A stretch of 64,000 nt of DNA from an uncultured Ignavibacteriota bacterium (lineage in GTDB: Bacteria; Bacteroidota; Ignavibacteria; UBA10030; UBA8401), in the NCBI GenBank assembly GCA_903861125.1, contig CAIOTF010000014.1:54497-118496 (forward strand). The letters run 5' to 3'. Made by a program: the position numbers and the translations under genes. The notes under the pieces are model-generated. The model had not been told where the DNA came from, did not search any database, and saw only the letters and a list, made by a program, of their open reading frames with translations. Of the stretch, positions 5,703 through 44,482 are shown in pieces. Every line of letters starts with the position of its first letter. The first letter of the stretch is position 1.

Positions 5703-5722
5703 AAACCTGGAGAACTGGCTCA

Positions 5723-10369: not shown

Positions 10370-10370
10370 T

Positions 10371-11572: not shown

Positions 11573-12058
11573 TCACGGCTTTACCCCTTTTTCCAAAAGG
11601 TAATCTGGAAATTTTTTCTTCTCGTATTGATTTTCCGCAATAAAACTCAACACATAGATGAACCTGCCTGGCTCAATGTAACCGGGTAGCATGGTGATAG
11701 CTTCGCCATTGCTTTTCAGGAACAGTGTTGCAGGATAACCGGTAATGCTCATCCCTTGCACGAAGTCAGATGGTCTCATCTTATGTCCTGAATAGGTTAT
11801 TGTGTCTTTGGCTTCTGCATTTAATTTGATGATAACAAAATTCTTTTCAAGATATTCCGTTATGTGCTTGTCGGAATATGTTTTGGAATCCATGGTCTTA
11901 CACCAGGTGCACCAATCCGTATACACATCTATCAAGATCTTTTTCCCGGAAATTCTTGCTATGTTTAATCCTTCATCGAATTTATTCCAACGAGGGGTTT
12001 TTGCGACTGACATAGTTGAGATGAAGAGCACAAGCAGAATAAGCAGAGTTTTTTTCAT
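11573..12058 (-). CDS. Periplasmic thioredoxin-fold thiol:disulfide oxidoreductase
   Basis: Signal peptide MKKTLLILLVLFISTMSVA and the WCTWC (CxxC) active-site motif. It is the last gene of the long minus-strand operon. Confidence 0.65.
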   Translation of the reverse strand: MKKTLLILLVLFISTMSVAKTPRWNKFDEGLNIARISGKKILIDVYTDWCTWCKTMDSKTYSDKHITEYLEKNFVIIKLNAEAKDTITYSGHKMRPSDFVQGMSITGYPATLFLKSNGEAITMLPGYIEPGRFIYVLSFIAENQYEKKKFPDYLLEKGVKP

Positions 12059-12097
12059 AATGATTGTTGTTGAGGATAAATAAAAAAGTGAAAATAA

Positions 12098-13132
12098 TTA
12101 ATTTCCATTGAACGATTGCTGCAAAATCATGTCAATACGCGAAAGAACCGAGCCGATAGGAATCTCATCAAATGTACACATTTTTGGATCGCCGGGACAT
12201 CGCTGCTGGCAAAATCCTGCGGTCGGTTCTATCACTTCCGATCTGTTTCCAAGTGAACCCCACAATTTTGACGAACAAGCAGGAAGAGGACAAAACATTG
12301 TTACTGTGGGTACTTTTAATGCGGCAGCAATATGCTGTGTACCGGTGCTGGATGAGACCAACACTGAAAGCATGCTGCAGAGTGCAATCAATTCCCGAAG
12401 GTCGCTACCCGAATAGACAATATGCTTTTTTTTGAATTGTTCGAATTGGTTCTCCATATGAGTGTTTGCAACACCAATATTGATGAACAATTGGTGTCGA
12501 TCTGAGAGTTTTTCGCACAGATTTACATATTGTTCAGGTTTCCAGTTCGGCACTGAATTATTTGAACTGGGATTGATACCAATAACCGGTTTATCCGGAT
12601 CGAAGCCTCGTTCAGCCAAAAAATTCTTCGCGTGTTCTTTTTCTTCGTTAGTGACAAATAATTCTGTTGCGATATCATCGACAGTTATGCCGATCTTTCT
12701 GCCAAGATCCATCACATAGTCAGCCTCGTGACGAAGAGGAATGTATTTATTTCTGCTCACTGTTTTTGTTCCGGTGAGGATCTGATAAATTTTTCCACCA
12801 ACCCCGATCCGCTGTTGTATTCCTGCAAGGAACATCATCCATGCATGCCGTTCACGCGGTAGCGGCATTAGTCCTGTATCGAACTTCAGCGAACGCAGAT
12901 GAGCAACTTGATTCCAAAACCCCTTTCTTCCAGAATTAGCACCGTGCGGATCGTCGGTAATCAGAAGGTCAATGTTAGGGTTATTCTTAAGCAAAACGCC
13001 TGAAACTGAATTTACCATCACACCGACAAAGGAATTCGGAAACGATTGTTTCACAGCGCGGATGAGAGGAGTTGTGAGAACAACATCACCGATACGGTCC
13101 GGACGGATGATAAGAATTCGGCGTGGTGTCAT
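12098..13132 (-). CDS. Glycosyltransferase family 9 (heptosyltransferase-like)
   Basis: RILIIRPDRIGDVVLTTPLIRAVKQSFPNSFVGVMV and VSSSTGTQHIAAALKVPTVTMFCP. Confidence 0.75.
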   Translation of the reverse strand: MTPRRILIIRPDRIGDVVLTTPLIRAVKQSFPNSFVGVMVNSVSGVLLKNNPNIDLLITDDPHGANSGRKGFWNQVAHLRSLKFDTGLMPLPRERHAWMMFLAGIQQRIGVGGKIYQILTGTKTVSRNKYIPLRHEADYVMDLGRKIGITVDDIATELFVTNEEKEHAKNFLAERGFDPDKPVIGINPSSNNSVPNWKPEQYVNLCEKLSDRHQLFINIGVANTHMENQFEQFKKKHIVYSGSDLRELIALCSMLSVLVSSSTGTQHIAAALKVPTVTMFCPLPACSSKLWGSLGNRSEVIEPTAGFCQQRCPGDPKMCTFDEIPIGSVLSRIDMILQQSFNGN

Positions 13133-14160
13133 TGCAGAACTTGTTTATAGACAGCAAGTGTTTTTTCTGCTACGGTGCTCCAAAGGAATTCCTTTTTAAT
13201 ATGTTCTCTGAGGGCCGAAGTCTTTTGAGCATTCAACGCATGTATAATGCCATTCCTGATCGATTCTACGGAACGCGGTTCAACATAAACCGCATGTGAT
13301 TCGAAATAATCTTTGGTGCCGCCGTACGGAGTGATAACAATCTTTGCTCCGGCAAGTGCTGCTTCGAGAGCCGCAATACCGGGTGTCTCAAAAAGAGAAG
13401 GAAGGGCGAAAACACTGCATGCTGCATATGCCGAGGCAAGCATTTCTGAATCGTTCTCAAGTCCGTCAATGAGGAGAATGTTCTTCGAAAGTTTTGTCTC
13501 TTCCAGACATTGTTTTCCTTCGGAAGTTCCTGAGATTTTTCCGATGATGACTGCCGGATGATCGACATTTTTTAACGCTTTGATGAGTTGAAGTACATTC
13601 TTTCGTGCGGGACCGATATGACCGACATTAAGAATGAAATTATCGATGCCGTATTTTTTTTTGAACAAAGAAGGATCACCGTGTTCAAAGCGTGCTTCAA
13701 CTCCGTTGGGCACAACCGATATCTTTCCGGGTGCAATACCTAATCCGTTACCAAGCAGTGTTGCCTCATCACGCGTATTCGGCAGAACTGATTTAGACCA
13801 ATTGCAAATCTGCTGCGTATAATCATAACTCGTCCAGATACCGGATTTGAAATGTTTCAAAGTCTTTGATATCCCGAGGATCGTCCGGATATATGCCGGA
13901 GAATGCTCGGTGAAAAAAATCGATGAACTTACGAAGGGAATATTGAAATTATTCATTACACTTGCCAAATGAAATGTTCCCAGGTTAGCCGAGAATAGAT
14001 GAACGAGATCGCACGATGTGCGGTCAAACTGTTCCCACGGATGGAAAAGGGAGACATGTACGCCGAGTTTTTCCAGTTCATTCTTTGTTTGCAGGATCTG
14101 GACACGCGGTCCGCCATGCAGCAGGGATAATGATTGATATGTTGCAAAAGTTATGTTCAT
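13129..14160 (-). CDS. Glycosyltransferase family 4 (GT-B, group 1)
   Basis: C-terminal E-x7-E region ETPGIAALEAALAGAKIVITPYGGTKDYF. There are 4-nt overlaps with both neighbouring genes. Confidence 0.7.
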   Translation of the reverse strand: MNITFATYQSLSLLHGGPRVQILQTKNELEKLGVHVSLFHPWEQFDRTSCDLVHLFSANLGTFHLASVMNNFNIPFVSSSIFFTEHSPAYIRTILGISKTLKHFKSGIWTSYDYTQQICNWSKSVLPNTRDEATLLGNGLGIAPGKISVVPNGVEARFEHGDPSLFKKKYGIDNFILNVGHIGPARKNVLQLIKALKNVDHPAVIIGKISGTSEGKQCLEETKLSKNILLIDGLENDSEMLASAYAACSVFALPSLFETPGIAALEAALAGAKIVITPYGGTKDYFESHAVYVEPRSVESIRNGIIHALNAQKTSALREHIKKEFLWSTVAEKTLAVYKQVLQ

Positions 14161-15680
14161 TCAGTAGTCTTTATCCACCAATCAAGTGCATTCTGAAGTA
14201 TATGACGTGCATCGAATGTGCGGGAACTCATAATATTTTTAGGTGATTCTATCTCTCTTTTGACCATGGTGAAGGAAACTTTGTTCAAATCAATTTTCCC
14301 ATTGATGCTGATGATTGCTTCACTGAGATCAGGTAAAATGATACGGCAGTAAGTGTCACCCGACGAAGATTCTATCGTTCCGTCTGAAAATCTTAATTGT
14401 GGAAGCGTTGAAGACCGTTGTTTCCACCAGTCTGAATATTGTGTATACGAAAGTTTCAGAATATTTCGCTCGTTAATATAACGAAAAACTTCTTCAAAGA
14501 CTCCGTTGTGTTCATGCGTGGGGTGATGATACAGACAGATCGGTTCGTTTAGCAGTATGTTTGTATCGATCACAGTCCGGTAATGTGCCGCCATTTCCTC
14601 ATCGCTCATCCGGGCGCGAAGCATCGTCCCGATACAGACCGGATGGATGGGGAGCTGCGGGAACGGTAGAAACCGGTTCTTCATGAACGGATATGAAGGG
14701 AGATTATCGTAATCATATGCAAATTCGGATGAATATTGAAATCCGAGCGACTCAATAGCCTCTGCATATTCTTTGTTCCATTCACCTGTGGGTGCTGTAA
14801 TGCCCTTTGGATTCAGATTGTTCTTACGGAGAAGCATAAGTGCTTTTTCGAAATTCTCTCTGTTCAATATTGTGCTGCGGTGCAGCAGATGTTCATAACA
14901 ATGAACGCCGATCTCCTGGTGCTCGAATTTTTTGAAATAGGGAAGCCACGATTCATGGCTTTTTACGTCCAGGAACCATGTGGTTGGAATATAGTGGCGC
15001 TCGCTCAACTGATAGATCTGTTCGATCTGACTTTGCGTACCCTTGTCTGAATCGATCCTCATCGTGAATACAGTCGGTTCGGAATCGGGGTAATACCATT
15101 GATGAACAAAGGGCATCTGTTGAAGATGATGAAGTTTCTGTATTAGAGAAAAGATCAGTTGTCTTAGCGTGCCTTTGCTGCGCAAGGCCACAGTTTCGTT
15201 GGGCATTCTTCCGGTATTTCGGTAGAAATTATTTCTTTGCGAATTAGTAGAGATAGCCACATTGATATCTATCCCAAGGTATGCTTTCCATCCATCGCCG
15301 AATGGTTCAACGTCGGCAAAGTCGTTATTATGGAAAAAAGAAACGCGGGAAAACAAATCAAGGATGCCGTTGAATTGGTAGAGATCATTTTTTGATGGCG
15401 GTAAAGAGCGAACGAATGATTTCGATACGGTCCTGTCATCTACTGCATTTACAGAATTCGTTGTATACAACACGGATCCGCCGCGGCGAACAAAATCCTC
15501 TAAACTAGTTTGCAGGAACGTATCCATTGTGCCGTTGACAATGATAACGGAAAAATCATTCAGCAGGTTAGAACCATCTGACACAACAGAAAAAGGAATG
15601 CCGATCTGGCGTAAGACCAATTCCCAGACCGGTTCGTAACGAACCAACCCGATCTGCATTATGAAAGGATTATTTCGCAT
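14157..15680 (-). CDS. Hypothetical protein with a divergent polysaccharide-deacetylase-like (CE4/NodB-fold) signature
   Basis: Loose matches to CE4 motifs: RIDSD, HCYEH (an H-x3-H), and LYHHPTHE. It sits between two GT4 genes. The similarity is weak. Confidence 0.35.
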   Translation of the reverse strand: MRNNPFIMQIGLVRYEPVWELVLRQIGIPFSVVSDGSNLLNDFSVIIVNGTMDTFLQTSLEDFVRRGGSVLYTTNSVNAVDDRTVSKSFVRSLPPSKNDLYQFNGILDLFSRVSFFHNNDFADVEPFGDGWKAYLGIDINVAISTNSQRNNFYRNTGRMPNETVALRSKGTLRQLIFSLIQKLHHLQQMPFVHQWYYPDSEPTVFTMRIDSDKGTQSQIEQIYQLSERHYIPTTWFLDVKSHESWLPYFKKFEHQEIGVHCYEHLLHRSTILNRENFEKALMLLRKNNLNPKGITAPTGEWNKEYAEAIESLGFQYSSEFAYDYDNLPSYPFMKNRFLPFPQLPIHPVCIGTMLRARMSDEEMAAHYRTVIDTNILLNEPICLYHHPTHEHNGVFEEVFRYINERNILKLSYTQYSDWWKQRSSTLPQLRFSDGTIESSSGDTYCRIILPDLSEAIISINGKIDLNKVSFTMVKREIESPKNIMSSRTFDARHILQNALDWWIKTTE

Positions 15681-16653
15681 TGATCAAGGAGTCAATGTGG
15701 GAGGTTAGTTGTTGTTCCCGTTTATGTTTTGTAAATAATGTTGCAATACGTTCACGAGCCGATGAATTATTATTTTGCGCTAACCCAGTCATTACGGCTT
15801 TCACAGCATCTTGAACATTCCCATAGTCTATAATGCTGCCGGATTCTCCAATCGCTGTAGGAATACCTCCAACATTGGTCCCAATGGGGTAACATTCGCA
15901 CAACATCGCTTCGCAGACTGTGTTTGGCAATCCTTCGCGTAGCGATGGTTGCAGGTACACAGATGCTTTCTGATAGTATGCCAGCAGTTCAGTTTGCGGA
16001 ACAAATTCAATAACTACAATATTAGAAGGGATGGCAAATTGTTTTGTAATCTCATTTTTCATTCCAACAAGAACGAACGATTGCTTCGGCATTGCAGAAG
16101 CAATATCGAATAAAAAATCTATTCCTTTGATCCTAACACGTGTAAGACTGTCGCACTGTGCAACGGTCAGAATGATCTTTTCTTTTGTTCTTCCCGGTTC
16201 CCAACGGCCGGAATCGTATCCGGTGGGAACGATATGAATATTCTTCCCGTCATACCGGGCAAGCCGTATCGCATCTTGTCTTAGAGAATCATCAACGGCG
16301 AGGACAATGTCAGCATTCATGATTCCATATCGTACGATCTTCGATTTCCACCTACTGTTCCAAATACCGTAGTCCAATTCATGCATGTTCGCAACATCCA
16401 CTCCGCCAAGGACAATGATCGATTCTTTGCCGAATAACTTCGCAAGGAAAACAAGGACAGATGAGTAGACTGAGGCGAACCAGGAAAATGTTACATCGGA
16501 GGAGGGGAGTGCAAAAAGAAATTTTATAAAAGTTAATGGGCCTGAAGAAATGATTTCTTTAACAGAATACCGTGAGCGAAGAAAAGAAAAATCTTCCCGA
16601 ATGAAGGATGTAGAGAATGCTGCTGTGAACAATATTTTCGATTTTTTGTTCAC
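15670..16653 (-). CDS. Glycosyltransferase family 4
   Basis: REGLPNTVCEAMLCECYPIGTNVGGIPTAIGESGSIID, a GT4 E-x7-E motif. Confidence 0.7.
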   Translation of the reverse strand: MNKKSKILFTAAFSTSFIREDFSFLRSRYSVKEIISSGPLTFIKFLFALPSSDVTFSWFASVYSSVLVFLAKLFGKESIIVLGGVDVANMHELDYGIWNSRWKSKIVRYGIMNADIVLAVDDSLRQDAIRLARYDGKNIHIVPTGYDSGRWEPGRTKEKIILTVAQCDSLTRVRIKGIDFLFDIASAMPKQSFVLVGMKNEITKQFAIPSNIVVIEFVPQTELLAYYQKASVYLQPSLREGLPNTVCEAMLCECYPIGTNVGGIPTAIGESGSIIDYGNVQDAVKAVMTGLAQNNNSSARERIATLFTKHKREQQLTSHIDSLINAK

Positions 16654-16664
16654 GAAAGATCAGT

Positions 16665-17558
16665 CTAAAGACTAAACGTGATCGAAAATATATGGTTGGG
16701 GGAAAAGGCCCCGCTCATTGGAACGAAAGCGTAATCCAATCGAAGAATGCCGTATAGAACACCCGCACCTGTCGAAAATGATTTCGTCTCATATCCGGTT
16801 TGATATCCTCCGCGCAGCATGAACATTGAATCGTACACAGCCTCGGCTCCCAGTTGCAGATGAGTACCGTCGTCGTTCAATGTTTTTACGGCATCGCCGG
16901 CAGTGAGCAACAAAATTTCATTTGTAAGCGACAAGCCATAGGAAGCGCCAATCCGAACGGTTGTAGGAAGCACCGAACGTTCTGAACGTAAAATACCCAT
17001 CTTCCCGAGGTTAAGAAGGCTCATGCCGATATTAAGATTATCGAGTGCTTTATAGAAAATGCCGGCGTCAAATCCATAACCGCTTGCTTCATCAACGAAG
17101 ATCTTTTCATATAGTAATTTCCCGGTGAGACCGACCGTCAACTTATCCGATACAGAAAAAGCAGCGCCGATACCAAGGGCACCGTTGCGGGCTCCGAATG
17201 TTCCTTCGGCATCACCGGGGCGCAAGCGGACTTCAATGTTATTCACAGAAGTTGTATATGCAGAAATCCCGATTGAAACATCATTTCCCGGTATAGTTGC
17301 ACCGATATAATCAGCGGTTGTTTCGGCAAAACCTTGCCGATGGCTTATCATTAATTGTCGACCGGAGAAACGAATCGACGCAGGATTATAACCATACGAA
17401 GAGTGATCGTTAGTCACCGAAGTAAATGATTCACCCATTGCTACGGAACGAGCATCATTTCCTTGTTTGAGGAACGTCAAACCGGTATTGATACTTTGAG
17501 CGAAAGCAGAAAACGAGCAGAAGAGGAGAATAAATAATATGGTTCGTATCTTCGTCAT
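16665..17558 (-). CDS. FadL/PorV-like outer-membrane beta-barrel protein
   Basis: Signal peptide MTKIRTILFILLFCSFSAFAQ. N-terminal motif ARSVAMGESFTSVTNDHSSYGYNPASI is shared with ORFs 5723-6756 and 17555-18526. C-terminal aromatic residue. Confidence 0.5.
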   Translation of the reverse strand: MTKIRTILFILLFCSFSAFAQSINTGLTFLKQGNDARSVAMGESFTSVTNDHSSYGYNPASIRFSGRQLMISHRQGFAETTADYIGATIPGNDVSIGISAYTTSVNNIEVRLRPGDAEGTFGARNGALGIGAAFSVSDKLTVGLTGKLLYEKIFVDEASGYGFDAGIFYKALDNLNIGMSLLNLGKMGILRSERSVLPTTVRIGASYGLSLTNEILLLTAGDAVKTLNDDGTHLQLGAEAVYDSMFMLRGGYQTGYETKSFSTGAGVLYGILRLDYAFVPMSGAFSPNHIFSITFSL

Positions 17559-18526
17559 ATTCTTATCGAAAGAGAAATTACGTGAATGGAGAACAGACCG
17601 TACGGTTCAAGAATATAGGCATAATTCACAGAAGGTTTCCAATCCGTATAATCCGTCCGTACGGTAAATCCGAAAGAGGGGTGAGCTTGATCGGGTTTTT
17701 TCAGATCCCAACCGTCGATACCGGCACGAATGGTTATTGCTTCTATCGGGGTGACTTCGCCGCCAGCACGAATGATCAGAGTGGATCTGTTGCTACGTTC
17801 AAGTTCCGCTGAAAGCAATCCTCCAAAATCATCGAAGGCATAGGAGATACCCACTGCTTGCCGTTCCGGGAATTTATCGATAGTTGAATTTCCCAGCTGT
17901 CCGTAAAGATCGGAGGTATCCCATCGGTATTTTGCATTCACATCTTTATATGTACCGGCGATCATTAGTTTTGAGGTGATAGGATAGATGAAACCGAAAT
18001 CAAATCCGGCTCCGGTGGATGACAGTTTATCGAAAAGAGAGAAATAATATAATTTTGTTGTGAGTCCAATCGTCAATTTCCTGATCCGTAGTGCGAACGA
18101 CAGGGAGAATTGATTTTCGGAAACGGAATAGGTCTCAGTTTTGTAACCATCGTTATCCCGTCCGTCGATGTTTGACACTCCTGCATTAAGAATACCGAAT
18201 GAAATTCCGGCATTGGTATCGATCGGTTGAGAATAGTAGATCGAATTCAAACTTCGGTCGAGCGACAATATACCGTACGAAACAGACGCACTGTTGTTTT
18301 TCAGCAGGGCAATGGCGGCCGGATTATAGTAACCGGAATTCTCTCCTTCTTTTACAGCAGTTAAAGCATTTCCCATGCCCATTCCTCTTGCACCGAAACC
18401 CATGCGCGAAAATGCTCCGGGAGTTCCTGCAAGTTGTGCCGATGAGATTACGGTACACAACAATAATGCTGCCGATAGTATGGTTGCTCTATTGAATGAC
18501 AAGTATTTTTCCCCAGCGTGGTTCAT
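17555..18526 (-). CDS. FadL/PorV-like outer-membrane beta-barrel protein (paralog of the gene downstream)
   Basis: Signal peptide ...AALLLCTVISSAQ. Motif GARGMGMGNALTAVKEGENSGYYNPAAIA. The annotated start overlaps the upstream gene by 38 nt, so the true start may be later. Confidence 0.5.
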   Translation of the reverse strand: MNHAGEKYLSFNRATILSAALLLCTVISSAQLAGTPGAFSRMGFGARGMGMGNALTAVKEGENSGYYNPAAIALLKNNSASVSYGILSLDRSLNSIYYSQPIDTNAGISFGILNAGVSNIDGRDNDGYKTETYSVSENQFSLSFALRIRKLTIGLTTKLYYFSLFDKLSSTGAGFDFGFIYPITSKLMIAGTYKDVNAKYRWDTSDLYGQLGNSTIDKFPERQAVGISYAFDDFGGLLSAELERSNRSTLIIRAGGEVTPIEAITIRAGIDGWDLKKPDQAHPSFGFTVRTDYTDWKPSVNYAYILEPYGLFSIHVISLSIRI

Positions 18527-20051
18527 CGTTGTCTATTACGATCTGATAAAAATATACACCATTGGTAACCAAAGAGTTGTTCTCATTTCTTCCATCCCAT
18601 AGTTCGTCATGTTCGCGCGTAGATTCGCGTACTGCGTTCTGAACGACGGTCCGGACTAGATTCATTCCAAAATCAAAAATACGTAACGTTACTTTGGCAG
18701 CCGACGGTTTTCCTGTTGCATAATGGATGCGCACTGTCTCGTCGTCCGGTGCAAAAGGATTCGGATATGCATATGTTTCCGAGGTGGACGGAAGTTTTAA
18801 TGATGCGTGTAGGATCGTCCAATTGCTGCCGAACGGTGTATTGATGTTGTCGATCGTCTTCACTGCACCGTCAGCGCCGCCAAACCAGGCGGTGTCGCCC
18901 GATGATGCAGCCGCAAAGAATTTGCTCTGTGTATACCGTTGACGTGTAGACTTATCGTAGATCGATCCTGTCTGTATCCAGGATTGTCCGAAGTCGCTTG
19001 AACGGAAGATACCGTTGTCTGTCGGAACATACACAACATCTCCCTTGAAACCGAAATTGTGAGGGAATTCTCCGAGCAATGCTTGTTTCCACGAGATACC
19101 GCCATCTTCGGTAAAACTGACGCCGCGTTTTTCAGTATTGTCCGAAGCATTTATTGTCGCTGCCCAGATGATATTTTTTGTTGAAGTTTTTTGCTTGCCT
19201 ATGCCCACAATAAAATTGCCTGAAATGGGATTGAGTTGAGTTTGTTTGGTAAATTTCGTCCAGGACAATCCTCTATTTGTTGTTTTATTGATGCCGCCGG
19301 CCGATCCAATCCAAACCGTGGAATCGTTCTCCGCAAAAACAGAGAATGCCCTGTGGTTCAAATTGTTCTGCAATCCTAATGCTCCGCCGGAAGGAGAGAG
19401 ATCGAAGACGAGAGAATCATTCGGTGAGATGGATGTAAGATTATCCGGCGGCAGGATGACGCGTTTCCATGTTTTGCCGGTATCGTTTGTCACTCGCGCC
19501 ATGCCGGCGAACGAGCAGATATAAACGGAACTTCCTGCAATGGCGATATCGTACGTGATATTATTGATCGCCGTTGTAATTCCTAATGCGCGGATCGTGC
19601 TTTTCGAATTCCAGAATAACGTATCAACATTTTTTGTATCCAATGGCTGCGCGATTACTTTCCACGTCTCACCGCCGTCAGAAGAATACCGCAATCCGCT
19701 TCCTTCTGGTAAGGATTGGTTATCACGCACCACAGAGTGTGCGGTTGCAACCCACACATTTTTCCCTCTTACTGCCAATGCCGAAATATCTTCTTTGCCG
19801 AATTCCGGTGAATCATAATAATTTTTCCAGGTTCGTCCGCCGTCCGCCGATCTGCTCAAGCCTTTACCGGTGCCGAGCCAAATTGTATCATTACTGATGA
19901 CGATATCGGTAATGCTGTTGCCTGCCTGAAGCGTCGGTAATGAATTTGATTGTGAAAGCTTGAACGATTGTTCTGAAAGAATGTGTGGCTGTGCAATCGC
20001 AATTCTCAGACACGCAAATATATATAGCAAACGTGAAATAGGTTTTTTCAT
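18489..20051 (-). CDS. BNR/Asp-box repeat beta-propeller protein with a type A T9SS C-terminal sorting domain
   Basis: Signal peptide. At least 5 S-x-D-x-G-x-T/S-W repeats (SADGGRTWK, SSDGGETWK, TNDTGKTWK, TNRGLSWT, SSDFGQSWI). C-terminal YAYPNPFAPDDETVRIHY...GVYFYQIVIDNDEPRWGKILVIQ. Confidence 0.65.
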   Translation of the reverse strand: MKKPISRLLYIFACLRIAIAQPHILSEQSFKLSQSNSLPTLQAGNSITDIVISNDTIWLGTGKGLSRSADGGRTWKNYYDSPEFGKEDISALAVRGKNVWVATAHSVVRDNQSLPEGSGLRYSSDGGETWKVIAQPLDTKNVDTLFWNSKSTIRALGITTAINNITYDIAIAGSSVYICSFAGMARVTNDTGKTWKRVILPPDNLTSISPNDSLVFDLSPSGGALGLQNNLNHRAFSVFAENDSTVWIGSAGGINKTTNRGLSWTKFTKQTQLNPISGNFIVGIGKQKTSTKNIIWAATINASDNTEKRGVSFTEDGGISWKQALLGEFPHNFGFKGDVVYVPTDNGIFRSSDFGQSWIQTGSIYDKSTRQRYTQSKFFAAASSGDTAWFGGADGAVKTIDNINTPFGSNWTILHASLKLPSTSETYAYPNPFAPDDETVRIHYATGKPSAAKVTLRIFDFGMNLVRTVVQNAVRESTREHDELWDGRNENNSLVTNGVYFYQIVIDNDEPRWGKILVIQ

Positions 20052-20899
20052 TGAATGAATATCCTTTTGATGATCACATTGGAATATGCATTCGACTGAT
20101 CTTTTGCGGCAAAAATGAAATCCCGGTAAGTGTTCCGGGTGGTAGAATTGAATATTGGGACAATAATTGAATAGATTCCGTCACCTGCCAGACTATCACC
20201 GCTTGTCAATCCAAATTGGGGGAGCACCGTCTTCCCGCCGTCATCAGAAAGTGAAAATGTTCCTACAACGGATGAATCAGGACGTTGAGATGTCAATATA
20301 ACTGATACGATGTCGTTCAATCCCTGCTGATCGGACACTCCAAGCGAGATATAAATCAGATTCACGGAATCAGCACTGTTCGGAACCCGCACGGAATCCG
20401 GAGATGAAAGATTGAAAATGGTCGGTGCGTTGTTCGTCGATAAAATGATATTGAGAGGAATGTTGAATGTATTGCTTGAGAAGCCTTCTTTGTCAGTTGC
20501 AGTGAACTGGACATTATAGATACCGATGACATCTTTTGGTAATTTAAGATCGATCTGCGCATTATATTTGCCATCCGATGCATTTACATCAGGTGCTATG
20601 CCATTGTCATGCAATGTTCCCGAAGTGAACAATTTTCCCGAAGGCGAGATCACTCTGAACGATATCGTTGCAATATCAGCTAGACCGTTATCGTCGCCTG
20701 CATAGACGTATCCAAGCATTGAAATATCGATCGTAGTTCCTGTTGAGGATATTTTCCCAAAATCTACGATGGCTGGGGCGATACTTGCTTCGATGATTGA
20801 AGGAGGTATTTGTGTGTCAATAACAGCGTTATCACTCGGAGCTTTGCATCCGGCGATTGCTATAACGGCACACAATAATAGGCGAAGTGTTCGGTCCAT
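20048..20899 (-). CDS. Lipoprotein, probably with Ig-like folds; first gene of the long minus-strand operon
   Basis: Lipobox LLCAVIAIAGC after the N-terminal Met. Beta-rich, Ser/Thr/Asn-rich sequence. 4-nt ATGA overlap with the BNR gene. Confidence 0.5.
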   Translation of the reverse strand: MDRTLRLLLCAVIAIAGCKAPSDNAVIDTQIPPSIIEASIAPAIVDFGKISSTGTTIDISMLGYVYAGDDNGLADIATISFRVISPSGKLFTSGTLHDNGIAPDVNASDGKYNAQIDLKLPKDVIGIYNVQFTATDKEGFSSNTFNIPLNIILSTNNAPTIFNLSSPDSVRVPNSADSVNLIYISLGVSDQQGLNDIVSVILTSQRPDSSVVGTFSLSDDGGKTVLPQFGLTSGDSLAGDGIYSIIVPIFNSTTRNTYRDFIFAAKDQSNAYSNVIIKRIFIQ

Positions 20900-20901
20900 A
20901 T

Positions 20902-20932
20902 CAAAAAAAAACCGAGGACTTTATCCTCGGTT
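20902..20932 (-). terminator. Intrinsic terminator for the upstream minus-strand operon that ends with the M50 protease
   Basis: On the minus strand the sequence reads ccgagga-uaaag-uccucgg followed by U9. The U-tract ends 3 nt before the ATG of the lipoprotein gene. Confidence 0.5.
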
Positions 20933-21070
20933 AGAATAAAGCAATCTGCAATTAAAAAGTTGTTCGCAAAAATTTGTATCGGAATCTAATGTATCGAACT
21001 TTTCTATGGCAGACTGCAATTGTTATTGAATTCTTTAACAATAATAATAAAATTTTGTTTGAGAGTCAAA

Positions 21071-22003
21071 CTAAAAGGCAATATTGAACGGTGATGGCGT
21101 AAAACTAATGACTAAAATTCCAAATGTAAGCCAACCAATAAGACGACGGTTTGCATCTAATTCAGTTTCATCTTCAACCGGAGGATGATATAATTTTACC
21201 ACGAACAGCAGTATCAATGTCCAAAAGACCCATCCGGACCAACCGATAGTAGTTTCAACACCAAGCAGCGGTAATAATCCGGCCGCACCAAGAAGAAAAA
21301 TAAAGCCAAATGAGACATTTGCGACCATGGTATGATTTCTTCCAAACATCGTGTAGGAAAGATGTCCGCCGTCCAGTTGTCCGATGGGAATCAAATTCAT
21401 TGCGGTAACAAAAAGCCCGAACCATCCTGTGCAAAGGAAGGGATAATGATACATCTCGCTCATCGGCGGTATGAAATCTGTAGCACCGTTTGTCAGTATA
21501 AGTCCGAAAAAATTATACAACAGGGAATGTCCAAAAGTCAATCCGATTCCTTGCTGTGTCTGAGTGAAATAATCGGGATGAATCTTAAGAATGAATTCTT
21601 TACCAGGAAGGTGCGTGAATCCGTATATCAATATTGCGATCGTTGCAAAAAATCCGGCGATCGGACCGGCAACGCCGATGTCGAACATCACCTTCTTGGA
21701 GGGGATAGGAGACTGCGTTTTAATTATTGCACCGAATGTACCGAAATTCATAAAACCTGGCACCGATGGAGTAGGGATGAAGAACGGCAGCGTTGCATCA
21801 ACACCGTGATAACGCGCGGCAAAATAATGTCCGAACTCGTGACAGGTGAGAATGAAAAGGATTGAAAACGAATACGGCAGACCGTACGCAAAATTGGAAA
21901 GTTCAAACGGATCGATATTGAGCCAAGCCACACCGGCCACCGTTGTAGTAAAGAAAGTTGCAATGAACAGAGAAAGATGGAGAAGAATTTTTCTGATAGT
22001 CAT
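21071..22003 (-). CDS. Site-2-protease-like integral-membrane zinc metallopeptidase (M50 family)
   Basis: The HExxH motif (HEFGHYFAARYHG) lies in a transmembrane segment and the protein is polytopic, as in RseP/SpoIVFB-type proteases. Confidence 0.6.
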   Translation of the reverse strand: MTIRKILLHLSLFIATFFTTTVAGVAWLNIDPFELSNFAYGLPYSFSILFILTCHEFGHYFAARYHGVDATLPFFIPTPSVPGFMNFGTFGAIIKTQSPIPSKKVMFDIGVAGPIAGFFATIAILIYGFTHLPGKEFILKIHPDYFTQTQQGIGLTFGHSLLYNFFGLILTNGATDFIPPMSEMYHYPFLCTGWFGLFVTAMNLIPIGQLDGGHLSYTMFGRNHTMVANVSFGFIFLLGAAGLLPLLGVETTIGWSGWVFWTLILLFVVKLYHPPVEDETELDANRRLIGWLTFGILVISFTPSPFNIAF

Positions 22004-22006
22004 AAT

Positions 22007-22822
22007 TTAAAAATCAATATTGAATCCAACGCCGGAATATGTATCACTGCGGTCATGATATTCCCCGTGGATGCTGTTGCCGGAATAATAGATGAAGAAA
22101 ACTTTTGTCCCTCGTCCGCTCCAGTTGCCCATCTTTGCTCCCGCTTGAAACTCGTGCCGTGGACGAAGTCCAGTCACCGTAAACTGATAGGCAGCATATC
22201 CATGAACCGAATCGAAAAGAGATTGATGATATTCACCTCCGAAATATTCGGCGAATTTCGGCAATGTAGTCGGATCGACATGCCAAAGATAGAGTGTGCC
22301 GAAATAGATTCGAAGAGAACTGACAGGTTCATAACTGACGGCAAGATCAAAAAATTCCCTGCTGTACACCCTTGGATGTATGCCATCTTTCCATAATCCT
22401 TGTGTACCGTCATAATGTCCGTCAACAAAGTGTGCGCTGATGTGGCTCAGTCGCAATCGTGATGAGAAGAGACCGCAATCCAGAGAATCAGCGTAATTGA
22501 TATTGAAACCGAAGAGATAATCCACAGCATCTACGGGAAAATGAAAATCCTTTTCTCCGCGAAGCAAGGTGAATGTAAAGAAATCTGATCCGATTGTAAG
22601 ATGCTTTCGGCTCTCCTGGAAAGTGTATTGAAATAAATCAACGGAATTGCCGATATCCAGTCTCAACCGGTTATCGTTTGCATGCCAGATCAGTCCCACG
22701 CGCGGTTCGAATGTTTGTGCTGTCAACGGTCTGAAAAGAAGAGGTCCGGATGCAAATGAGAAACCAGATTCCGCTGCAGATGTCAGTGAGACAAGAGAAA
22801 GAAGAAGAAAAATATGTTTCAT
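22007..22822 (-). CDS. Small outer-membrane beta-barrel protein (MipA/OmpV-like); hypothetical
   Basis: Signal peptide MKHIFLLLSLVSLTSA and the alternating pattern ending in ...GVGFNIDF with a C-terminal Phe. The start overlaps the stop of the upstream PHP gene by 1 nt (TAATG). Confidence 0.45.
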   Translation of the reverse strand: MKHIFLLLSLVSLTSAAESGFSFASGPLLFRPLTAQTFEPRVGLIWHANDNRLRLDIGNSVDLFQYTFQESRKHLTIGSDFFTFTLLRGEKDFHFPVDAVDYLFGFNINYADSLDCGLFSSRLRLSHISAHFVDGHYDGTQGLWKDGIHPRVYSREFFDLAVSYEPVSSLRIYFGTLYLWHVDPTTLPKFAEYFGGEYHQSLFDSVHGYAAYQFTVTGLRPRHEFQAGAKMGNWSGRGTKVFFIYYSGNSIHGEYHDRSDTYSGVGFNIDF

Positions 22823-24432
22823 TACGGTTGAATCCAAATCGGGTTTGTATAACAGAATCCGTCACGGTCTATTCCGTGTCCATGCTGAGTGTATGCCTCT
22901 GCTCTAATATACGAAAAGAATTCCGCTTGATGCCAATCGCTTATCTGATGAATGGAATACGGATTCCTGAACTGCCTGATCTCAAAAAGTATGCGTTCAC
23001 CTTTGCCGATGATCCCTATAAAAATTTTGATGTGAGTGAATGTTCCGAATTCATCCGTTGTTTCACCGTGAAATTTTACAACAAATTTTTTTCCACTCAC
23101 TGTTTCTCCAATCCTGCCTACGTCTGGCGAATCCGTTTCCATTTCGATCGTCAGCAAAGGACCATTGGTAATAACAGTTCTCCCTTTTCCCATTGCATCA
23201 ATCACATCAGATTCCGTTAAGGCCGAAACAAGCGCAGCCGTCTTCATTTTGCCAAAGAGCTGAGCTTCATTTTCTCTGAACATGACCATCGGAATTCCGA
23301 TCTGAACAAAGCGGTTAAAGTTTCCATGGGCATCGTTTCCGGCAAGGATGAATTTTTTTTCTCCCCGGTTGAGCATCCATTTCCAAACGTCCATGCCTCG
23401 GTAAAAACCGTCCGAACGCGATCCGTTTAAGATTTGAATACCTGAGAGTTCTTTTTCACTCATATCTTTCAAGGACCATTCGTCCCGCTTCAGCAATACT
23501 TTCTGCAGGGACGAAACATCCTCCGTCGGATGAGCAGCATATGCTACGACATTATTTTCTTTTTGTGAGAGAATTTCACCAATGGTAAACTCGCTTTCGG
23601 TGGTGAACCATTTTTCAGCTCCATCACCTGAGCCATGAAAGAAACGGCGGTTACCGAAGAGAAGAAAATGCACATTATAGTTCTCCGAATTTGTGCAGGA
23701 GACTTCTTCTCCGCGAATTACGGCGAAATCTTTTTCTCTCGCGTTTACCTGGTCGATCTCATTCTGGTATTCTTTCCATTTTGGGATTTCCGGATCGTTT
23801 ATAAGATAATTATCGGCTGAATCATCAAGATCATAAGAATGATCGGTAACTCCCACGAACGACAATCCCATAGAGCGGCACAAATGGGGTGCGGCAGCGA
23901 CCGGAGAACCGAATTCAACCTGATCCTCGGTATACGTAGAATGTGTATGTGTATCTCCGTAGATCCAGCCGTTTACCGACGGTAAATATGTCTTAGAACG
24001 ATAGAATTTCAGAGGTGGTTTAGAAGTGAATCGATGGTTGTTATTGTGGGTAATTTTTATTTTTCCTTTTTGTTTCGTGACAATCTCAACATCAACATGC
24101 ATCATGCCATACTTTGAAGCCAAATTACCCGTAAAGTTCAGGTCCAGGATCTTCCACCAGAAGTGAGATCTGATCATTAATGCAGGCGAAAATTCAAATG
24201 TGTGTGTATACTCCTGCCTCGCATTGTGTGAGATGGTTACGGTGATGCTCAACAACTGAATCGGATAGATATCGGCATCTTTGATTAGGATGAGTACCGG
24301 ATACGGTTTGTCCGGGTCTAAACGGTGAGGACCGTCGGCAATAATCTCTGGTTCGGAATTATTGTACAGACTGAAGAAATATTTGAAACGATAATGAGTC
24401 TCAGCATATAAGAAGAAAGGAAGAAGGAACAT
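22822..24432 (-). CDS. PHP-domain metal-dependent phosphoesterase-like protein with an N-terminal domain of unknown function
   Basis: GDTHTHSTYTED...VGVTDHS and later HP/NDAHG histidine clusters are typical of the PHP (polymerase/histidinol-phosphatase) fold. Confidence 0.5.
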   Translation of the reverse strand: MFLLPFFLYAETHYRFKYFFSLYNNSEPEIIADGPHRLDPDKPYPVLILIKDADIYPIQLLSITVTISHNARQEYTHTFEFSPALMIRSHFWWKILDLNFTGNLASKYGMMHVDVEIVTKQKGKIKITHNNNHRFTSKPPLKFYRSKTYLPSVNGWIYGDTHTHSTYTEDQVEFGSPVAAAPHLCRSMGLSFVGVTDHSYDLDDSADNYLINDPEIPKWKEYQNEIDQVNAREKDFAVIRGEEVSCTNSENYNVHFLLFGNRRFFHGSGDGAEKWFTTESEFTIGEILSQKENNVVAYAAHPTEDVSSLQKVLLKRDEWSLKDMSEKELSGIQILNGSRSDGFYRGMDVWKWMLNRGEKKFILAGNDAHGNFNRFVQIGIPMVMFRENEAQLFGKMKTAALVSALTESDVIDAMGKGRTVITNGPLLTIEMETDSPDVGRIGETVSGKKFVVKFHGETTDEFGTFTHIKIFIGIIGKGERILFEIRQFRNPYSIHQISDWHQAEFFSYIRAEAYTQHGHGIDRDGFCYTNPIWIQP

Positions 24433-25514
24433 TAGGATATCGCCGTTAAGAGATGATCAATGCGCTGACGTAGCACTGAATAATCATTGTGAAATTGTGT
24501 AAATCCGGAATATGAATTGAATTGCTCCATCGCACGCGTCAGTGAAAATTCTTTTTGTGATTCAAAATAGCAGATCTTTTGATCCTTCAGCCGCTGAGCC
24601 AAATATATCTGCTCAGTTTGCTGCGGGGTCGGAACAAAAACAGCATTGGCACCGAGATGTGACAGATCCATGATGGTGCTGTATCCCGGCCGTGAAATGA
24701 TGATATGTGATGCAGCAATTGCTTCCGACAATTCACCGGAAGTAAGGGAACCTATTAATGTGAGAGTGTCCGAGAGTTTCATCTTTAAGAATCTCTCCGG
24801 AGTGCCACGTACAACCAGCGCACGCAGTGTAGTCGTTTTTAGCTGATCCGTAATTAATGTTTCAAATAATGTTCGCTGAGGTTCCGGTCCGGAAAGAATC
24901 ACAAGAACATCGAGCTCTTTTTTTGTTGCGGCAATCCGCTTCAGACGTGAAAGGGGACCGATGAAAAAAGAATTTTGTGGAAGGACGGAATCGTGCGAAA
25001 GTTCTCCGCTGAGATTGTTCTCAGATTCGATATCAGGAATCCATACTTCGCTAAATGGCCTCATCAAATGTTTGTTTGCGTAATCAACAATCCCTTGTCC
25101 CCAGCGTAAATACGCGGAGAGTAGGATCCTGAGCTGATGCACCACGTATACTGATGGGACATTTACAGAATATGCACCCCAGCGGTTATCCGAAATAACG
25201 GCATCAATGCCATGGTCATTCACTATCTTTTCCAGTAATCGATGTTCATCGCCGATTCCTTTGAATAGTTTCGGCAGTTGACGGAACATCGTCCACGCCA
25301 TATTTGCGTTCACTGGATATTGTATCGCATACCCGGGATACCGGATATGCTCAAGGTCGGGGAATTCTTTTTTCAGCAATTCTGCCGGACGATTGTCGGC
25401 CGCGATTATGACCTCAGCCCCTTTCGCAATCAGTTCTTGGATGATCGGGATACACCTGGTAGCATGGCCAAGTCCCCAATCAAGCGGAGCGATCAGAATC
25501 CGTTTCTTCCTCAT
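24432..25514 (-). CDS. GT-B glycosyltransferase (GT1/GT28-like, MJ1255-type)
   Basis: N-terminal RILIAPLDWGLGHATRCIPIIQELIAKGAEVIIA is the nucleotide-sugar-binding Gly-rich loop of MurG/UGT-like enzymes. Confidence 0.55.
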   Translation of the reverse strand: MRKKRILIAPLDWGLGHATRCIPIIQELIAKGAEVIIAADNRPAELLKKEFPDLEHIRYPGYAIQYPVNANMAWTMFRQLPKLFKGIGDEHRLLEKIVNDHGIDAVISDNRWGAYSVNVPSVYVVHQLRILLSAYLRWGQGIVDYANKHLMRPFSEVWIPDIESENNLSGELSHDSVLPQNSFFIGPLSRLKRIAATKKELDVLVILSGPEPQRTLFETLITDQLKTTTLRALVVRGTPERFLKMKLSDTLTLIGSLTSGELSEAIAASHIIISRPGYSTIMDLSHLGANAVFVPTPQQTEQIYLAQRLKDQKICYFESQKEFSLTRAMEQFNSYSGFTQFHNDYSVLRQRIDHLLTAIS

Positions 25515-26164
25515 CGTATTGCTCCAAACGAGTATCCGCGCCGTTTGATTTCCGGTATCACACTATCAAGGATGTCAACGATCCGGCGTTGAGTGAGATC
25601 ATTATCATGATATACAAGGATTGCGCCATCCGAAAGATTTTTTAGCGAAACGCGTACGACCCGGTCATGTGTCCATTGCCGGAAATCGCCGGTCAGGCAG
25701 CTCCACATCACAAGAATGCAGCCAAGTTCACGTGCCGCTAAGATGGTCTTTCGGGAAAAAAATCCAAATGGCGGACGAAACAAACGTACATTTTGGTGGA
25801 TTATATCCGCGATGATTTTTTTCGTTTGGAGTATCTCTTCCTTAGTTTTTGTCTCGGATAATGCAAGCGATCGGGAATGATTGAATGCATGGATTCCGAT
25901 GGAATGGCCCTCATCTGCAATACGGCGGACAATCTCCTCGCGTCCCTGTATGTTTTTCCCGGAAAGAAAAAACGTTGCACGGACTTCATGTTTTTTCAAA
26001 AGATCCAGTACAGCTGGTGTTGCAGCAGTATGCGGTCCGTCATCGAACGTAAGGTACACTTTTTTGCCGGGCATTCGCCAGAGCAAAGAAGGAAAGAGTA
26101 TCTGATGTATAATGCCGGTATGCGAGATCATGCTGATTCTTTTTTTAACGTGCGCTCTTTCCAT
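25511..26164 (-). CDS. Polysaccharide deacetylase (CE4, NodB homology domain), cytoplasmic and NodB-sized
   Basis: Canonical motifs: YLTFDDGP (motif 1), HSIGIHAFNHS (H-x-x-x-H, motif 2), and VLVMWS/LVYHDND. 217 aa with no signal peptide. Confidence 0.8.
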   Translation of the reverse strand: MERAHVKKRISMISHTGIIHQILFPSLLWRMPGKKVYLTFDDGPHTAATPAVLDLLKKHEVRATFFLSGKNIQGREEIVRRIADEGHSIGIHAFNHSRSLALSETKTKEEILQTKKIIADIIHQNVRLFRPPFGFFSRKTILAARELGCILVMWSCLTGDFRQWTHDRVVRVSLKNLSDGAILVYHDNDLTQRRIVDILDSVIPEIKRRGYSFGAIR

Positions 26165-27279
26165 TCAAAAGAAAAAAAATATCCGCCGATAGTTGAAATA
26201 AGAACAAAGGGAATATGGATGATCGCCGTAACAATAAAATATTTCATCGCATCAGAGGTTTTTGTTATGGTTGCAAACCGATGCATAATCAGATAATCGG
26301 TCAAAAATTTTCCCGTCACGACGATCCAGGGGATGATATTCCATTCAACCAGTGTCAGTGGTAACGCTATCGTCAACGCAACGTACATAATAAATGTGCA
26401 GATCATAAAGAACATCATATACGGCGGATAATAAGCGGTCTGTCCGACCCAACGCATGCGCTGATGAAAAACTGCTTTCCATGTCATAACCGGATGCGTT
26501 GAAATAGCTGCATCATCATCGAAGGCAAACCGCGCCTTCCATTTTCCTGACGCTGCGATCTTTTGTGCGAGTAATGAATCATCCCCCGTATTAATGTGGG
26601 TCAACGCATCAAATCCATCTGCTTCATCGAATGCTTCAATACTGAATGCCATATTGCTTCCGTTGCTGACCAAAACCCGCTTCATCCCTATGGCGCCGGC
26701 AGCAATTGCCGTGTAGGAAATAAAATCCAGGAATTGAATTCCCCAAAACGGCGACGAGATACGGTCATCCTTTCCGTACTTTGTCAGTCCTGTAACGACT
26801 CCGACATTCTCTTCAAAATACGAATTGATCGCTGAAATCCAGCCGGGAGAGGCGATGCAATCTGCATCGGTGGTAATGATGATCTCGCTCGCAGAATGCT
26901 GGATCCCCAATGTCATCGCACGGATCTTCGGGGAACGTATCGTTGAGGTGATATCGGATTTCAAGAGTGTTATTGTTACGGTGGATCGTTGTGCAATTTC
27001 TTTTACTATTTCAGGGGTTCTGTCCGTTGATTGATCGTCGATAACGATGATCGCAAGTTTTTCTTTGGGATAATCCTGAATGAGCAGAGAGTTCAGGATG
27101 CGTTCAATATAATTCTCCTCGTTACGGGCCGGAATGATGACGGTAACGGAATGTTGAACCGTGTTTTTTCCTTTTGTCAATCGGGCGAGACCGCGAAAGA
27201 AGAATAGAATTTGGCGTACATACACTGCCAGCAGAAAAATCAAAAGAACGGAGGTATATTCAATGAATATCCTCATCAT
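26128..27279 (-). CDS. Membrane-embedded processive GT2 glycosyltransferase (NodC/PgaC/chitin-synthase-like)
   Basis: N-terminal TM segment, then VTVIIPARNEENYIERILNSLLIQDYP, a DD motif and QRMRW (the Q-x-x-R-W of processive beta-glycan synthases), with 3-4 C-terminal TM helices. Confidence 0.7.
   Translation of the reverse strand: MMRIFIEYTSVLLIFLLAVYVRQILFFFRGLARLTKGKNTVQHSVTVIIPARNEENYIERILNSLLIQDYPKEKLAIIVIDDQSTDRTPEIVKEIAQRSTVTITLLKSDITSTIRSPKIRAMTLGIQHSASEIIITTDADCIASPGWISAINSYFEENVGVVTGLTKYGKDDRISSPFWGIQFLDFISYTAIAAGAIGMKRVLVSNGSNMAFSIEAFDEADGFDALTHINTGDDSLLAQKIAASGKWKARFAFDDDAAISTHPVMTWKAVFHQRMRWVGQTAYYPPYMMFFMICTFIMYVALTIALPLTLVEWNIIPWIVVTGKFLTDYLIMHRFATITKTSDAMKYFIVTAIIHIPFVLISTIGGYFFSFEWKERTLKKESA

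Positions 27280-43099: not shown

Positions 43100-44482
<1,383 letters not shown>

Follow-up and report, generated by a model that had tools for sequence, protein, structure and literature searches.

A conserved operon of Ignavibacteria-type bacteria joins PorV/PorQ-type barrels and a probable type IX secretion substrate to a replaceable glycan cassette

In Porphyromonas the genes encoding the attachment complex within its type IX secretion system (T9SS) and those for the anchor glycan are scattered, and because of this it took two decades of genetics to connect cargo anchoring with the anionic lipopolysaccharide (A-LPS). Among the described systems closest to the locus studied here is the PorZ-PorQ half of the PorU-PorV-PorQ-PorZ complex of P. 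gingivalis. According to published work, A-LPS is bound by PorZ, which is found together with PorQ in the attachment complex; PorU and PorZ both keep their C-terminal domains (CTDs) (PMC8545088, PMC10947112, PMC11285876). The CTDs of PorU, PorZ and PorA are kept after secretion, whereas those of cargo proteins are cleaved and diverse in sequence (PMC11285876). The proteins of the linking sugar for cargo in P. gingivalis are VimE (CE4), VimA (FemAB-like, related to TIGR03019) and VimF (GT4) (PMC7468200). For the Ignavibacteria the sole relevant statement that our full-text searches turned up is that a T9SS may exist in the phylum. Here we analysed a 64,000-nucleotide stretch of DNA (the window) from an uncultured Ignavibacteriota bacterium (assembly GCA_903861125.1, contig CAIOTF010000014.1, positions 54,497 to 118,496), which carries a nine-gene operon on its minus strand (20899→11573). 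The operon joins genes for a lipoprotein, a propeller protein with a CTD and two outer-membrane barrels to four glycan-enzyme genes and a thioredoxin gene. We put the probability at roughly 0.42 that it encodes a T9SS-linked surface module working like PorZ-PorQ, with a propeller that presents a glycan; the likeness to PorZ would be one of function only, not of family membership. An earlier note on the same DNA had called such a co-operon of cargo, barrels and transferases undescribed, and full-text literature searches found no description of the arrangement, nor of T9SS attachment components in Ignavibacteria.

All nine open reading frames were found at the coordinates where the earlier note had placed them, and its family calls were all reproduced by scans with Pfam and NCBIfam hidden Markov models (HMMs) with curated cut-offs. 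The first gene (20048-20899, minus strand like the eight that follow) encodes a lipoprotein of 283 aa with the lipobox IAGC and two choice-of-anchor-X stretches, and scored 39 bits on NF041940 (cut-off 25). The second (18489-20051, 520 aa) encodes the propeller protein, with BNR and Sortilin matches and a C-terminal FlgD_ig / PorU-CTD-like domain. It is followed by barrel 1 (17555-18526, 323 aa) and barrel 2 (16665-17558, 297 aa). The glycan cassette consists of a GT4 gene (15670-16653, 327 aa; PF13692 67.6 bits, PF00534 58.6 bits), a CE4-like gene (14157-15680, 507 aa; PF01522 22.6 bits, cut-off 23.1), another GT4 gene (13129-14160, 343 aa; PF00534 66.1 bits, second GT4 Pfam model 52.2 bits) and a GT9 gene (12098-13132, 344 aa; PF01075 49.7 bits, cut-off 22). 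The last gene (11573-12058, 161 aa) encodes a thioredoxin-fold, DsbH/DUF255-like protein predicted to be periplasmic, with a signal peptide, the motif WCTWC and a PF03190 score of 52.9 bits. In order, the first four junctions are overlaps of 4, 38 and 4 nt and a gap of 11 nt, and the remaining four are overlaps of 11, 4 and 4 nt and a gap of 39 nt before the thioredoxin gene. The overlap between propeller and barrel 1 shrinks to 14 nt if barrel 1 starts at TTG 18502 rather than at ATG 18526. The genes had been described as joined by 4-nt overlaps or gaps of at most 10 nt; the tight packing stands, while the exact limits had to be widened to overlaps of 4-38 nt and gaps of up to 39 nt. No strong internal terminator was found within the operon; of the terminator-like hairpins in this region, the strongest stands a short way upstream of gene one.

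One genome per GTDB species was scanned, and at least 439 species were found to encode a relative of the propeller protein. The 80 best loci, with 10-kb flanks each, formed the synteny sample, onto which all window proteins were mapped by tblastn. Across these loci we found a conserved frame of genes for an M50 peptidase, (the lipoprotein), the propeller-CTD protein, barrel 1, barrel 2 and, further along, the thioredoxin; further upstream the frame holds GT2, flippase-like, GT2, CE4, GT2/GT28, PHP and (DUF1207) genes. The propeller gene and both barrel genes were adjacent in every locus with sufficient contig except L077, in which barrel 2 was below the detection threshold. Barrel 1 always adjoined the propeller gene where the contig reached, and the thioredoxin gene came after in most of the loci. 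The lipoprotein was the least conserved member of the frame, with orthologues that are 25-81% identical and no match in some loci. Metagenome-assembled genomes (MAGs) labelled Ignavibacterium album also carry the module, as do the complete chromosomes OY970334.1 and OY969585.1. The exact nine-gene order was kept with near-identical spacing in 12 other species, and in about 15 more with a flippase gene added; the arrangement is therefore beyond chance. The physical linkage of T9SS-type components to glycan enzymes, which the earlier note had suggested following in related genomes, is thus recurrent among the 80 loci and conserved in dozens of species.

The glycosyltransferase block was found to be a replaceable cassette inside this wider frame. 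Between barrel 2 and the thioredoxin gene lies a slot with at least six alternative fillings, depending on the lineage, and the GT4-CE4-GT4-GT9 block, previously read as a constant component of the nine-gene operon, is one of them. This filling (A; GT4, long CE4, GT4, GT9) was complete in 12 loci and cut by contig ends in several more. In about 16 loci (filling A') a Wzx-type flippase follows the first GT4 gene, and the GT9 gene is sometimes replaced by another GT4 gene. Filling B holds genes for a FemAB-like protein, a GT1-like protein and two PMT/ArnT-like GT-C proteins, and filling C those for a FemAB-like protein, a GT1-like protein and Wzx, with a GT4 gene on the opposite strand. Filling D is a single PMT-like gene. 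In filling E the slot is empty, with 40-230 nt from barrel 2 to the thioredoxin gene; this was seen in about ten lineages. In filling F no thioredoxin match was obtained, a 287-aa protein with a faint GT2-like match comes next, and the opposite strand carries genes for a Wzy_C/WaaL-like ligase, two GT9 proteins and MsbA. All occupied slots hold glycan genes, and the junctions of the cassettes measure 0-40 nt. Fillings B and C both contain FemAB-like proteins that match TIGR03019, and among the lineages examined the FemAB-like and the long CE4 genes never occurred together in the slot. O-antigen and LPS-core clusters likewise consist of a conserved frame with a hypervariable glycan slot, and Wzx, WaaL-like and MsbA genes are found in or near the locus in relatives. 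Unlike those clusters, the slot here is flanked by T9SS-type surface components rather than housekeeping genes, and in place of a JUMPstart/ops element the unit has a structured leader.

Judged by their HMM scores, the two barrels are members of the PorV/PorQ family and not recognisable orthologues of its named proteins. On the family model NF033709 (cut-off 90) barrel 2 scored 137.4 bits and qualifies as a member; barrel 1 scored 73.1 bits and is best explained as belonging to the same family. The barrels are 30% identical to each other over the N-terminal half, as old paralogues. On the PorQ model (NF033711, cut-off 220) barrels 1 and 2 scored 55.7 and 78.3 bits, and on the PorV model (NF033710, cut-off 250) 26.5 and 54.7 bits, so that by model score both lean towards PorQ over PorV. 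Barrel 2 also matched the solved PorV of F. johnsoniae (6h3i, E = 3e-6). The barrels had earlier been called FadL/PorV-like, and of this description the PorV/PorQ half was borne out by the HMM scores and the FadL half was not. That they are FadL-type importers of hydrophobic compounds, unrelated to the T9SS, appears most improbable. The Toluene_X model (PF03349, cut-off 29.7) gave weak matches to barrel 1 (15.4 bits) and to a third barrel of the window (18.4 bits), far below its cut-off, and left barrel 2 unmatched. The barrels score much higher on the PorV/PorQ model, one of them matches a solved PorV, and they always adjoin the CTD protein. The ordinary FadL transporters that the earlier note had named as an outcome speaking against its proposal were thus not found. 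Nor did the analysis encounter another such outcome named there, generic LPS-core glycosyltransferases in this context in genomes without a T9SS.

More than 2100 homologues of the propeller protein were found, nearly all of 505-535 aa and 45-88% identical, and all from uncultured 'Bacteroidota/Ignavibacteria' MAGs. The AlphaFold2 (AF2) model (pLDDT 77) contains one seven-bladed propeller at residues ~45-415, a low-confidence linker at 416-437 and a CTD at ~438-520, which forms a beta-sandwich with strands over 440-518. An Ig-like beta-sandwich after a flexible linker, as in type-A CTDs, is therefore present in the model. The last 90 residues aligned end to end with the TIGR04183-positive CTD of a protein encoded at 7251-9161 of the window (E = 3e-8), and the CTD also matched that of PorU (6za2, residues 1058-1139). 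The FlgD_ig score was 22 bits (cut-off 27). Because of the alignment with a TIGR04183-positive CTD, and though TIGR04183 itself misses it, the propeller protein is almost certainly a T9SS substrate, as far as its sequence tells. The mean column identity in the family was 70% for the CTD and 72% for the propeller, and invariant columns made up 28% and 22%, respectively. Since the CTD is as conserved as the propeller, unlike cargo CTDs, we infer that it has a lasting role, which would most simply be docking to the adjacent barrels. The constant length and high identity of the more than 2100 homologues, together with this conservation of the CTD, make the protein look like a machine part, for example PorZ, rather than ordinary cargo. 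The earlier description of the propeller as T9SS cargo is therefore kept as regards its type-A-like CTD and given up, on the conservation profile, as regards ordinary cargo. The best Foldseek matches of the propeller include the sugar-sensor propellers BT4663 and BT4673, and Reg_prop matches were obtained for several homologues.

The locus and the P. gingivalis complex both pair a CTD-ended beta-propeller surface protein with a barrel of the PorV/PorQ family. PorZ binds the anchor LPS glycan (PMC8545088), and here the propeller gene is embedded among LPS-type glycan genes. Two adjacent barrels are present instead of one, and they are co-operonic with each other and with the glycan enzymes. A glutamine follows the predicted signal-peptide cleavage site of the propeller protein (AIA|Q), of barrel 1 (SSA|Q) and of barrel 2 (AFA|Q). 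Such a Q after the cleavage site is the 'Q-rule' of Bacteroidetes, which is reportedly not valid for the whole FCB group (PMC5837995).

Within the cassette, the CE4-like protein belongs to a family of 170 members restricted to these lineages. Its AF2 model (pLDDT 93.7) has the CE4 fold in the C-terminal ~290 residues and an extra N-terminal domain of ~190 aa. The best Foldseek match in the PDB was ArnD (8t0j, E = 1e-10), and ArnD, HP0310 and other CE4 structures were matched with E from 1e-10 to 1e-6. ArnD is the deformylase of undecaprenyl-phosphate-Ara4FN. Residues D210, D212, H260 and H264 were invariant in 20 sequences, and the NodB-type fold, the Asp-His-His metal site and the catalytic Asp of CE4 enzymes were all present. 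As the protein has no signal peptide, its expected task is to deacylate, in the cytoplasm, an amino sugar bound to a nucleotide or a lipid, and the model is consistent with a cytoplasmic N-deacetylase or deformylase. Both GT4 proteins scored above the Pfam Glycos_transf_1 / Glyco_trans_1_4 cut-offs, and their PDB matches were generic GT4 enzymes. For the GT9 protein the best equivalog among the WaaC/WaaF/WaaQ models was TIGR02195 (79.5 bits, cut-off 134.6); its PDB matches were 3tov and WaaF (1psw), and it is closest to WaaF-type enzymes. Two further GT9 genes of LPS-core type (9341-11525, plus strand) lie convergently beside the operon, where the earlier note had seen them, and family matches confirmed the pair, which keeps its place next to the operon in related loci. 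The GT9 genes probably relate to the LPS core. In five loci without the GT4/CE4 cassette (L047, L050, L055, L060 and L066) two GT9 genes were found at the corresponding position on the opposite strand. In L055 (14283-19626) the two GT9 genes downstream of the barrels form one run with the genes for the Wzy_C/WaaL-like ligase and MsbA, and these GT9 genes are therefore tied to LPS assembly.

The cassette recalls the Wbp/Vim linking-sugar pathway in its GT4 and CE4 enzymes, and in the FemAB-like protein of other lineages, a likeness at the level of enzyme class only. In contrast to that pathway, the operon has no Wbp genes (UDP-sugar oxidation/amination), and it contains a GT9 gene, which is not among the A-LPS-specific genes of PMC7468200. 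The earlier note had also considered dedicated cargo glycosylation. A cassette that modifies the operon's own propeller protein or lipoprotein is a reading that we regard as very unlikely. In its favour, the genes are co-operonic, and PMT/ArnT-like GT-C enzymes occupy the slot in other lineages. Enzymes of this kind glycosylate periplasmic acceptors from lipid-linked donors. Against this stand the window cassette, which consists of cytoplasmic GT-B enzymes only, with no oligosaccharyltransferase or GT-C protein, and the high conservation of the propeller next to a cassette that varies.

DNA-level conservation of the 171-nt spacer that separates the M50 and lipoprotein genes extends to at least 18 species. 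A motif scan located a sigma-70-type promoter-like site (TTGACT-17 nt-TATTAT; 21041..21069, minus strand) directly after the M50 stop codon; in the 18-species alignment the TTGA of its -35 element is invariant and the -10 element is conserved (consensus TATCAT). It is followed by a predicted structured leader RNA of 130 nt (20903..21032, minus strand) with a long P1/P2 hairpin and then an intrinsic terminator. The terminator hairpin (AACCGAGGAT-AAA-GTCCTCGGTT and a T-run; 20903..20932, minus strand) has a 10-bp stem and ends 3 nt before the first start codon. The hairpin with the CCGAGG/CCTCGG stem was also found in about 20 species, and the leader was present at the matching position in loci L001-L041 and L064. 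Its fold had a minimum free energy of -34.9 kcal/mol (z = -5.56). The leader hairpin was derived from a single-sequence fold and then tested on alignments, as the first RNAalifold consensus had misaligned the terminator and gave a partial structure. In the MAFFT alignment 90.9% of cells could pair, as compared to 37-55% with slid partners, and 6 of the 19 leader pairs were compensatory; the observed values were reached by none of 500 shuffles. A covariance model (R1) built from this alignment was run over 1.38 Mb and matched the window and 34 loci, 15 of them outside the seed, with exactly one full-length forward match each and in every case at the leader position. In the expanded alignment, which was fitted to the model, 15 of the 19 leader pairs were compensatory. 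In it P1 changes from GCAGUCUGC/GCAGAnUGC to CGCAAUCUCU/AGAGACUGCG.

Nearly all sequences also allow an alternative pairing, in which the 3' strand of P1 and the linker pair with the loop and 3' arm of the terminator, with clade-specific letters. As read from the aligned sequences, such a pairing is what marks a terminator/antiterminator switch. The interval from the terminator to the start codon is too short to hold a promoter, and for this reason the leader is read as an attenuator gating the nine-gene operon; it is a candidate cis-regulatory element of this kind. Alternatively, it is a candidate terminated sRNA with occasional read-through. A leader peptide was considered and rejected; the leader of the window contains no ATG, and classical ribosome-mediated attenuation is therefore unlikely. 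Rfam 15 at the gathering score returned only a SAM riboswitch over the whole window and no family for the leader. At an E-value threshold the leader reached at most 20.6 bits (cut-off 55), and it matched generic sRNA models only. The leader was detected only in clades with the GT4/CE4 cassette, and divergence may hide it elsewhere. This RNA, linked with envelope glycan genes, is a candidate for a new regulatory class, and an additional, possibly independent novelty.

Promoter, leader and terminator are conserved, and the unit is thereby delimited. An ordinary clustering of envelope genes, in which a T9SS-secreted surface protein and its barrels stand beside generic LPS-core or O-antigen genes and co-transcription has no mechanistic meaning, is in our view unlikely. 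The region from 9 to 29 kb is indeed rich in envelope genes, the cassette is replaceable and sometimes absent, and the GT4 and GT9 proteins match generic family models only. Such clustering would, however, have to account for several unrelated cassettes inserted in precisely one slot with nearly no spacing, for the dedicated promoter and candidate attenuator, and for a CE4-like family that is limited to these lineages.

According to the proposed surface module, the nine genes would be transcribed as one unit from a promoter of their own, behind a structured leader with a terminator at its end. The lipoprotein and the periplasmic thioredoxin would belong to a conserved surface module of Ignavibacteria-type bacteria, in which the two PorQ/PorV-family barrels would hold the propeller, docked via an uncleaved CTD. 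The lineage-variable cassette would build or modify an LPS-linked saccharide at the cytoplasmic face. The CE4 enzyme may expose a sugar amine, to which a VimA-type FemAB enzyme may add an amino acid in other lineages. The surface propeller would bind the cassette glycan and present it for the attachment of T9SS cargo. Retention of the CTD, docking of the propeller on the barrels, glycan binding and a role in cargo anchoring are all deduced in this scheme.

Several findings weigh against the module working like PorZ-PorQ. Barrel 1 stays below the PorV/PorQ family cut-off, and neither barrel reaches the PorQ or PorV equivalog cut-off. Neither TIGR04183 nor PF18962 matched the propeller protein at E <= 0.01, and the match to the PorU CTD is non-discriminating, as the ordinary FG-GAP cargo at 7251-9161 matches too. 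The argument that the CTD is as conserved as the body was made without a control family of ordinary cargo. The best fold matches of the propeller include GH74, Ycf48 and WD40 proteins, which gives it a generic look. PorZ was not among its top 50-60 fold matches, no sequence match to PorZ (5m11) was obtained at E <= 1, and there is one propeller here while PorZ has two. As the slot is empty in about ten lineages, the module works there without co-encoded glycan enzymes. Envelope genes often cluster without direct functional coupling. PorU, SprA and PorKLMN were all absent from the window, and with no core genes there a full T9SS in the genome was assumed from the CTD-bearing proteins and the literature (PMC11285876).

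The pairing could also be a cognate set, possible yet rather doubtful, of one surface protein with its dedicated anchor barrels (SprB/SprF-like or CTD/PorP-type), with no role in attaching other cargo. The propeller would then bind or process the cell's own LPS, exopolysaccharide or S-layer, in length control, remodelling or adhesion. In the SprB-SprF and type-B CTD/PorP-like pairs of gliding Bacteroidota the gene of a CTD protein likewise adjoins that of a presumed barrel partner. Barrel 2 just passes the PorP_SprF cut-off (PF11751, 22.8 bits against 22.3), and the module persists where the slot is empty. A second pair of CTD protein and PorV-family barrel lies at 2082-6756, and this genome thus seems to favour cognate pairs. 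SprF-type partners, however, serve type-B CTDs; in this locus the CTD is type-A-like, the barrels fit PorV/PorQ much better, and glycan enzymes share the operon. The single propeller also lacks the two-propeller cleft that is known to hold the active site in the GH74 family. The cognate set would further leave unexplained why VimA-type and CE4 enzymes, which point to an amine-bearing sugar, recur in the slot.

In the second pair, the protein encoded at 2082-5702 (plus strand) has 1206 aa and a type-A-like CTD read by eye, and its more than 1300 homologues (44-82% identical) are all annotated as 'hypothetical'. The third PorV-family barrel (5722-6756, plus strand) scored 208 bits and leans towards PorV/PorV2, with no equivalog cut-off reached. 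In three loci with an identical 1206-aa protein (L081-L083) it is followed by a PorV-family barrel and preceded by a TonB-dependent receptor. Its size and position recall porU-porV, but an identity with PorU found no support, as no Pfam, NCBIfam or PDB match and no peptidase signature was found. A bolder joint reading, which we consider improbable as a whole, would take the region as a minimal self-contained T9SS attachment locus. It would combine a one-propeller PorZ analogue on two PorQ-like barrels, a swappable amine-glycan cassette and an undescribed riboswitch-like attenuator sensing an envelope or nucleotide-sugar signal, with the orphan 1206-aa CTD protein and its PorV-like barrel as the sortase half.

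Whichever reading applies, gene content, family assignments, conserved synteny and variable slot place a candidate glycan presenter, barrels and glycan enzymes in one operon, in which the cassette was swapped repeatedly in evolution. Beyond the classical Bacteroidia, such a locus may offer a natural experiment on the joint evolution of LPS chemistry and T9SS surface anchoring, and its compactness suits it to heterologous or genetic tests.

Upstream of the nine genes, a tight envelope operon of eight genes (21071..29320, minus strand) was identified by family matches. In transcription order it encodes GT2, a flippase-like LPG_synthase_TM protein, GT2, CE4, a GT28-like protein, a CehA/McbA PHP metallohydrolase, DUF1207 and the M50 peptidase, and its product is perhaps a glucosamine-type glycolipid. 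This operon was syntenic with the frame in most loci that were long enough. Between the third barrel and the GT9 pair lies the gene of the FG-GAP repeat protein (7251-9161, minus strand), which has a bona fide TIGR04183 sorting domain and a sub-threshold match to a surface-polysaccharide biosynthesis model (NF046077, 32 bits, cut-off 60). The region has an even GC content. Housekeeping functions (NADH dehydrogenase subunits, RelA/SpoT, Der, S1 and the SAM riboswitch) fill the rest of the window, and the stretch is therefore chromosomal. The SAM riboswitch (RF00162; 42760-42874, plus strand; 64.5 bits) lies upstream of a gene for a PLP enzyme of Cys/Met metabolism (43139-44482), which is an ordinary arrangement.

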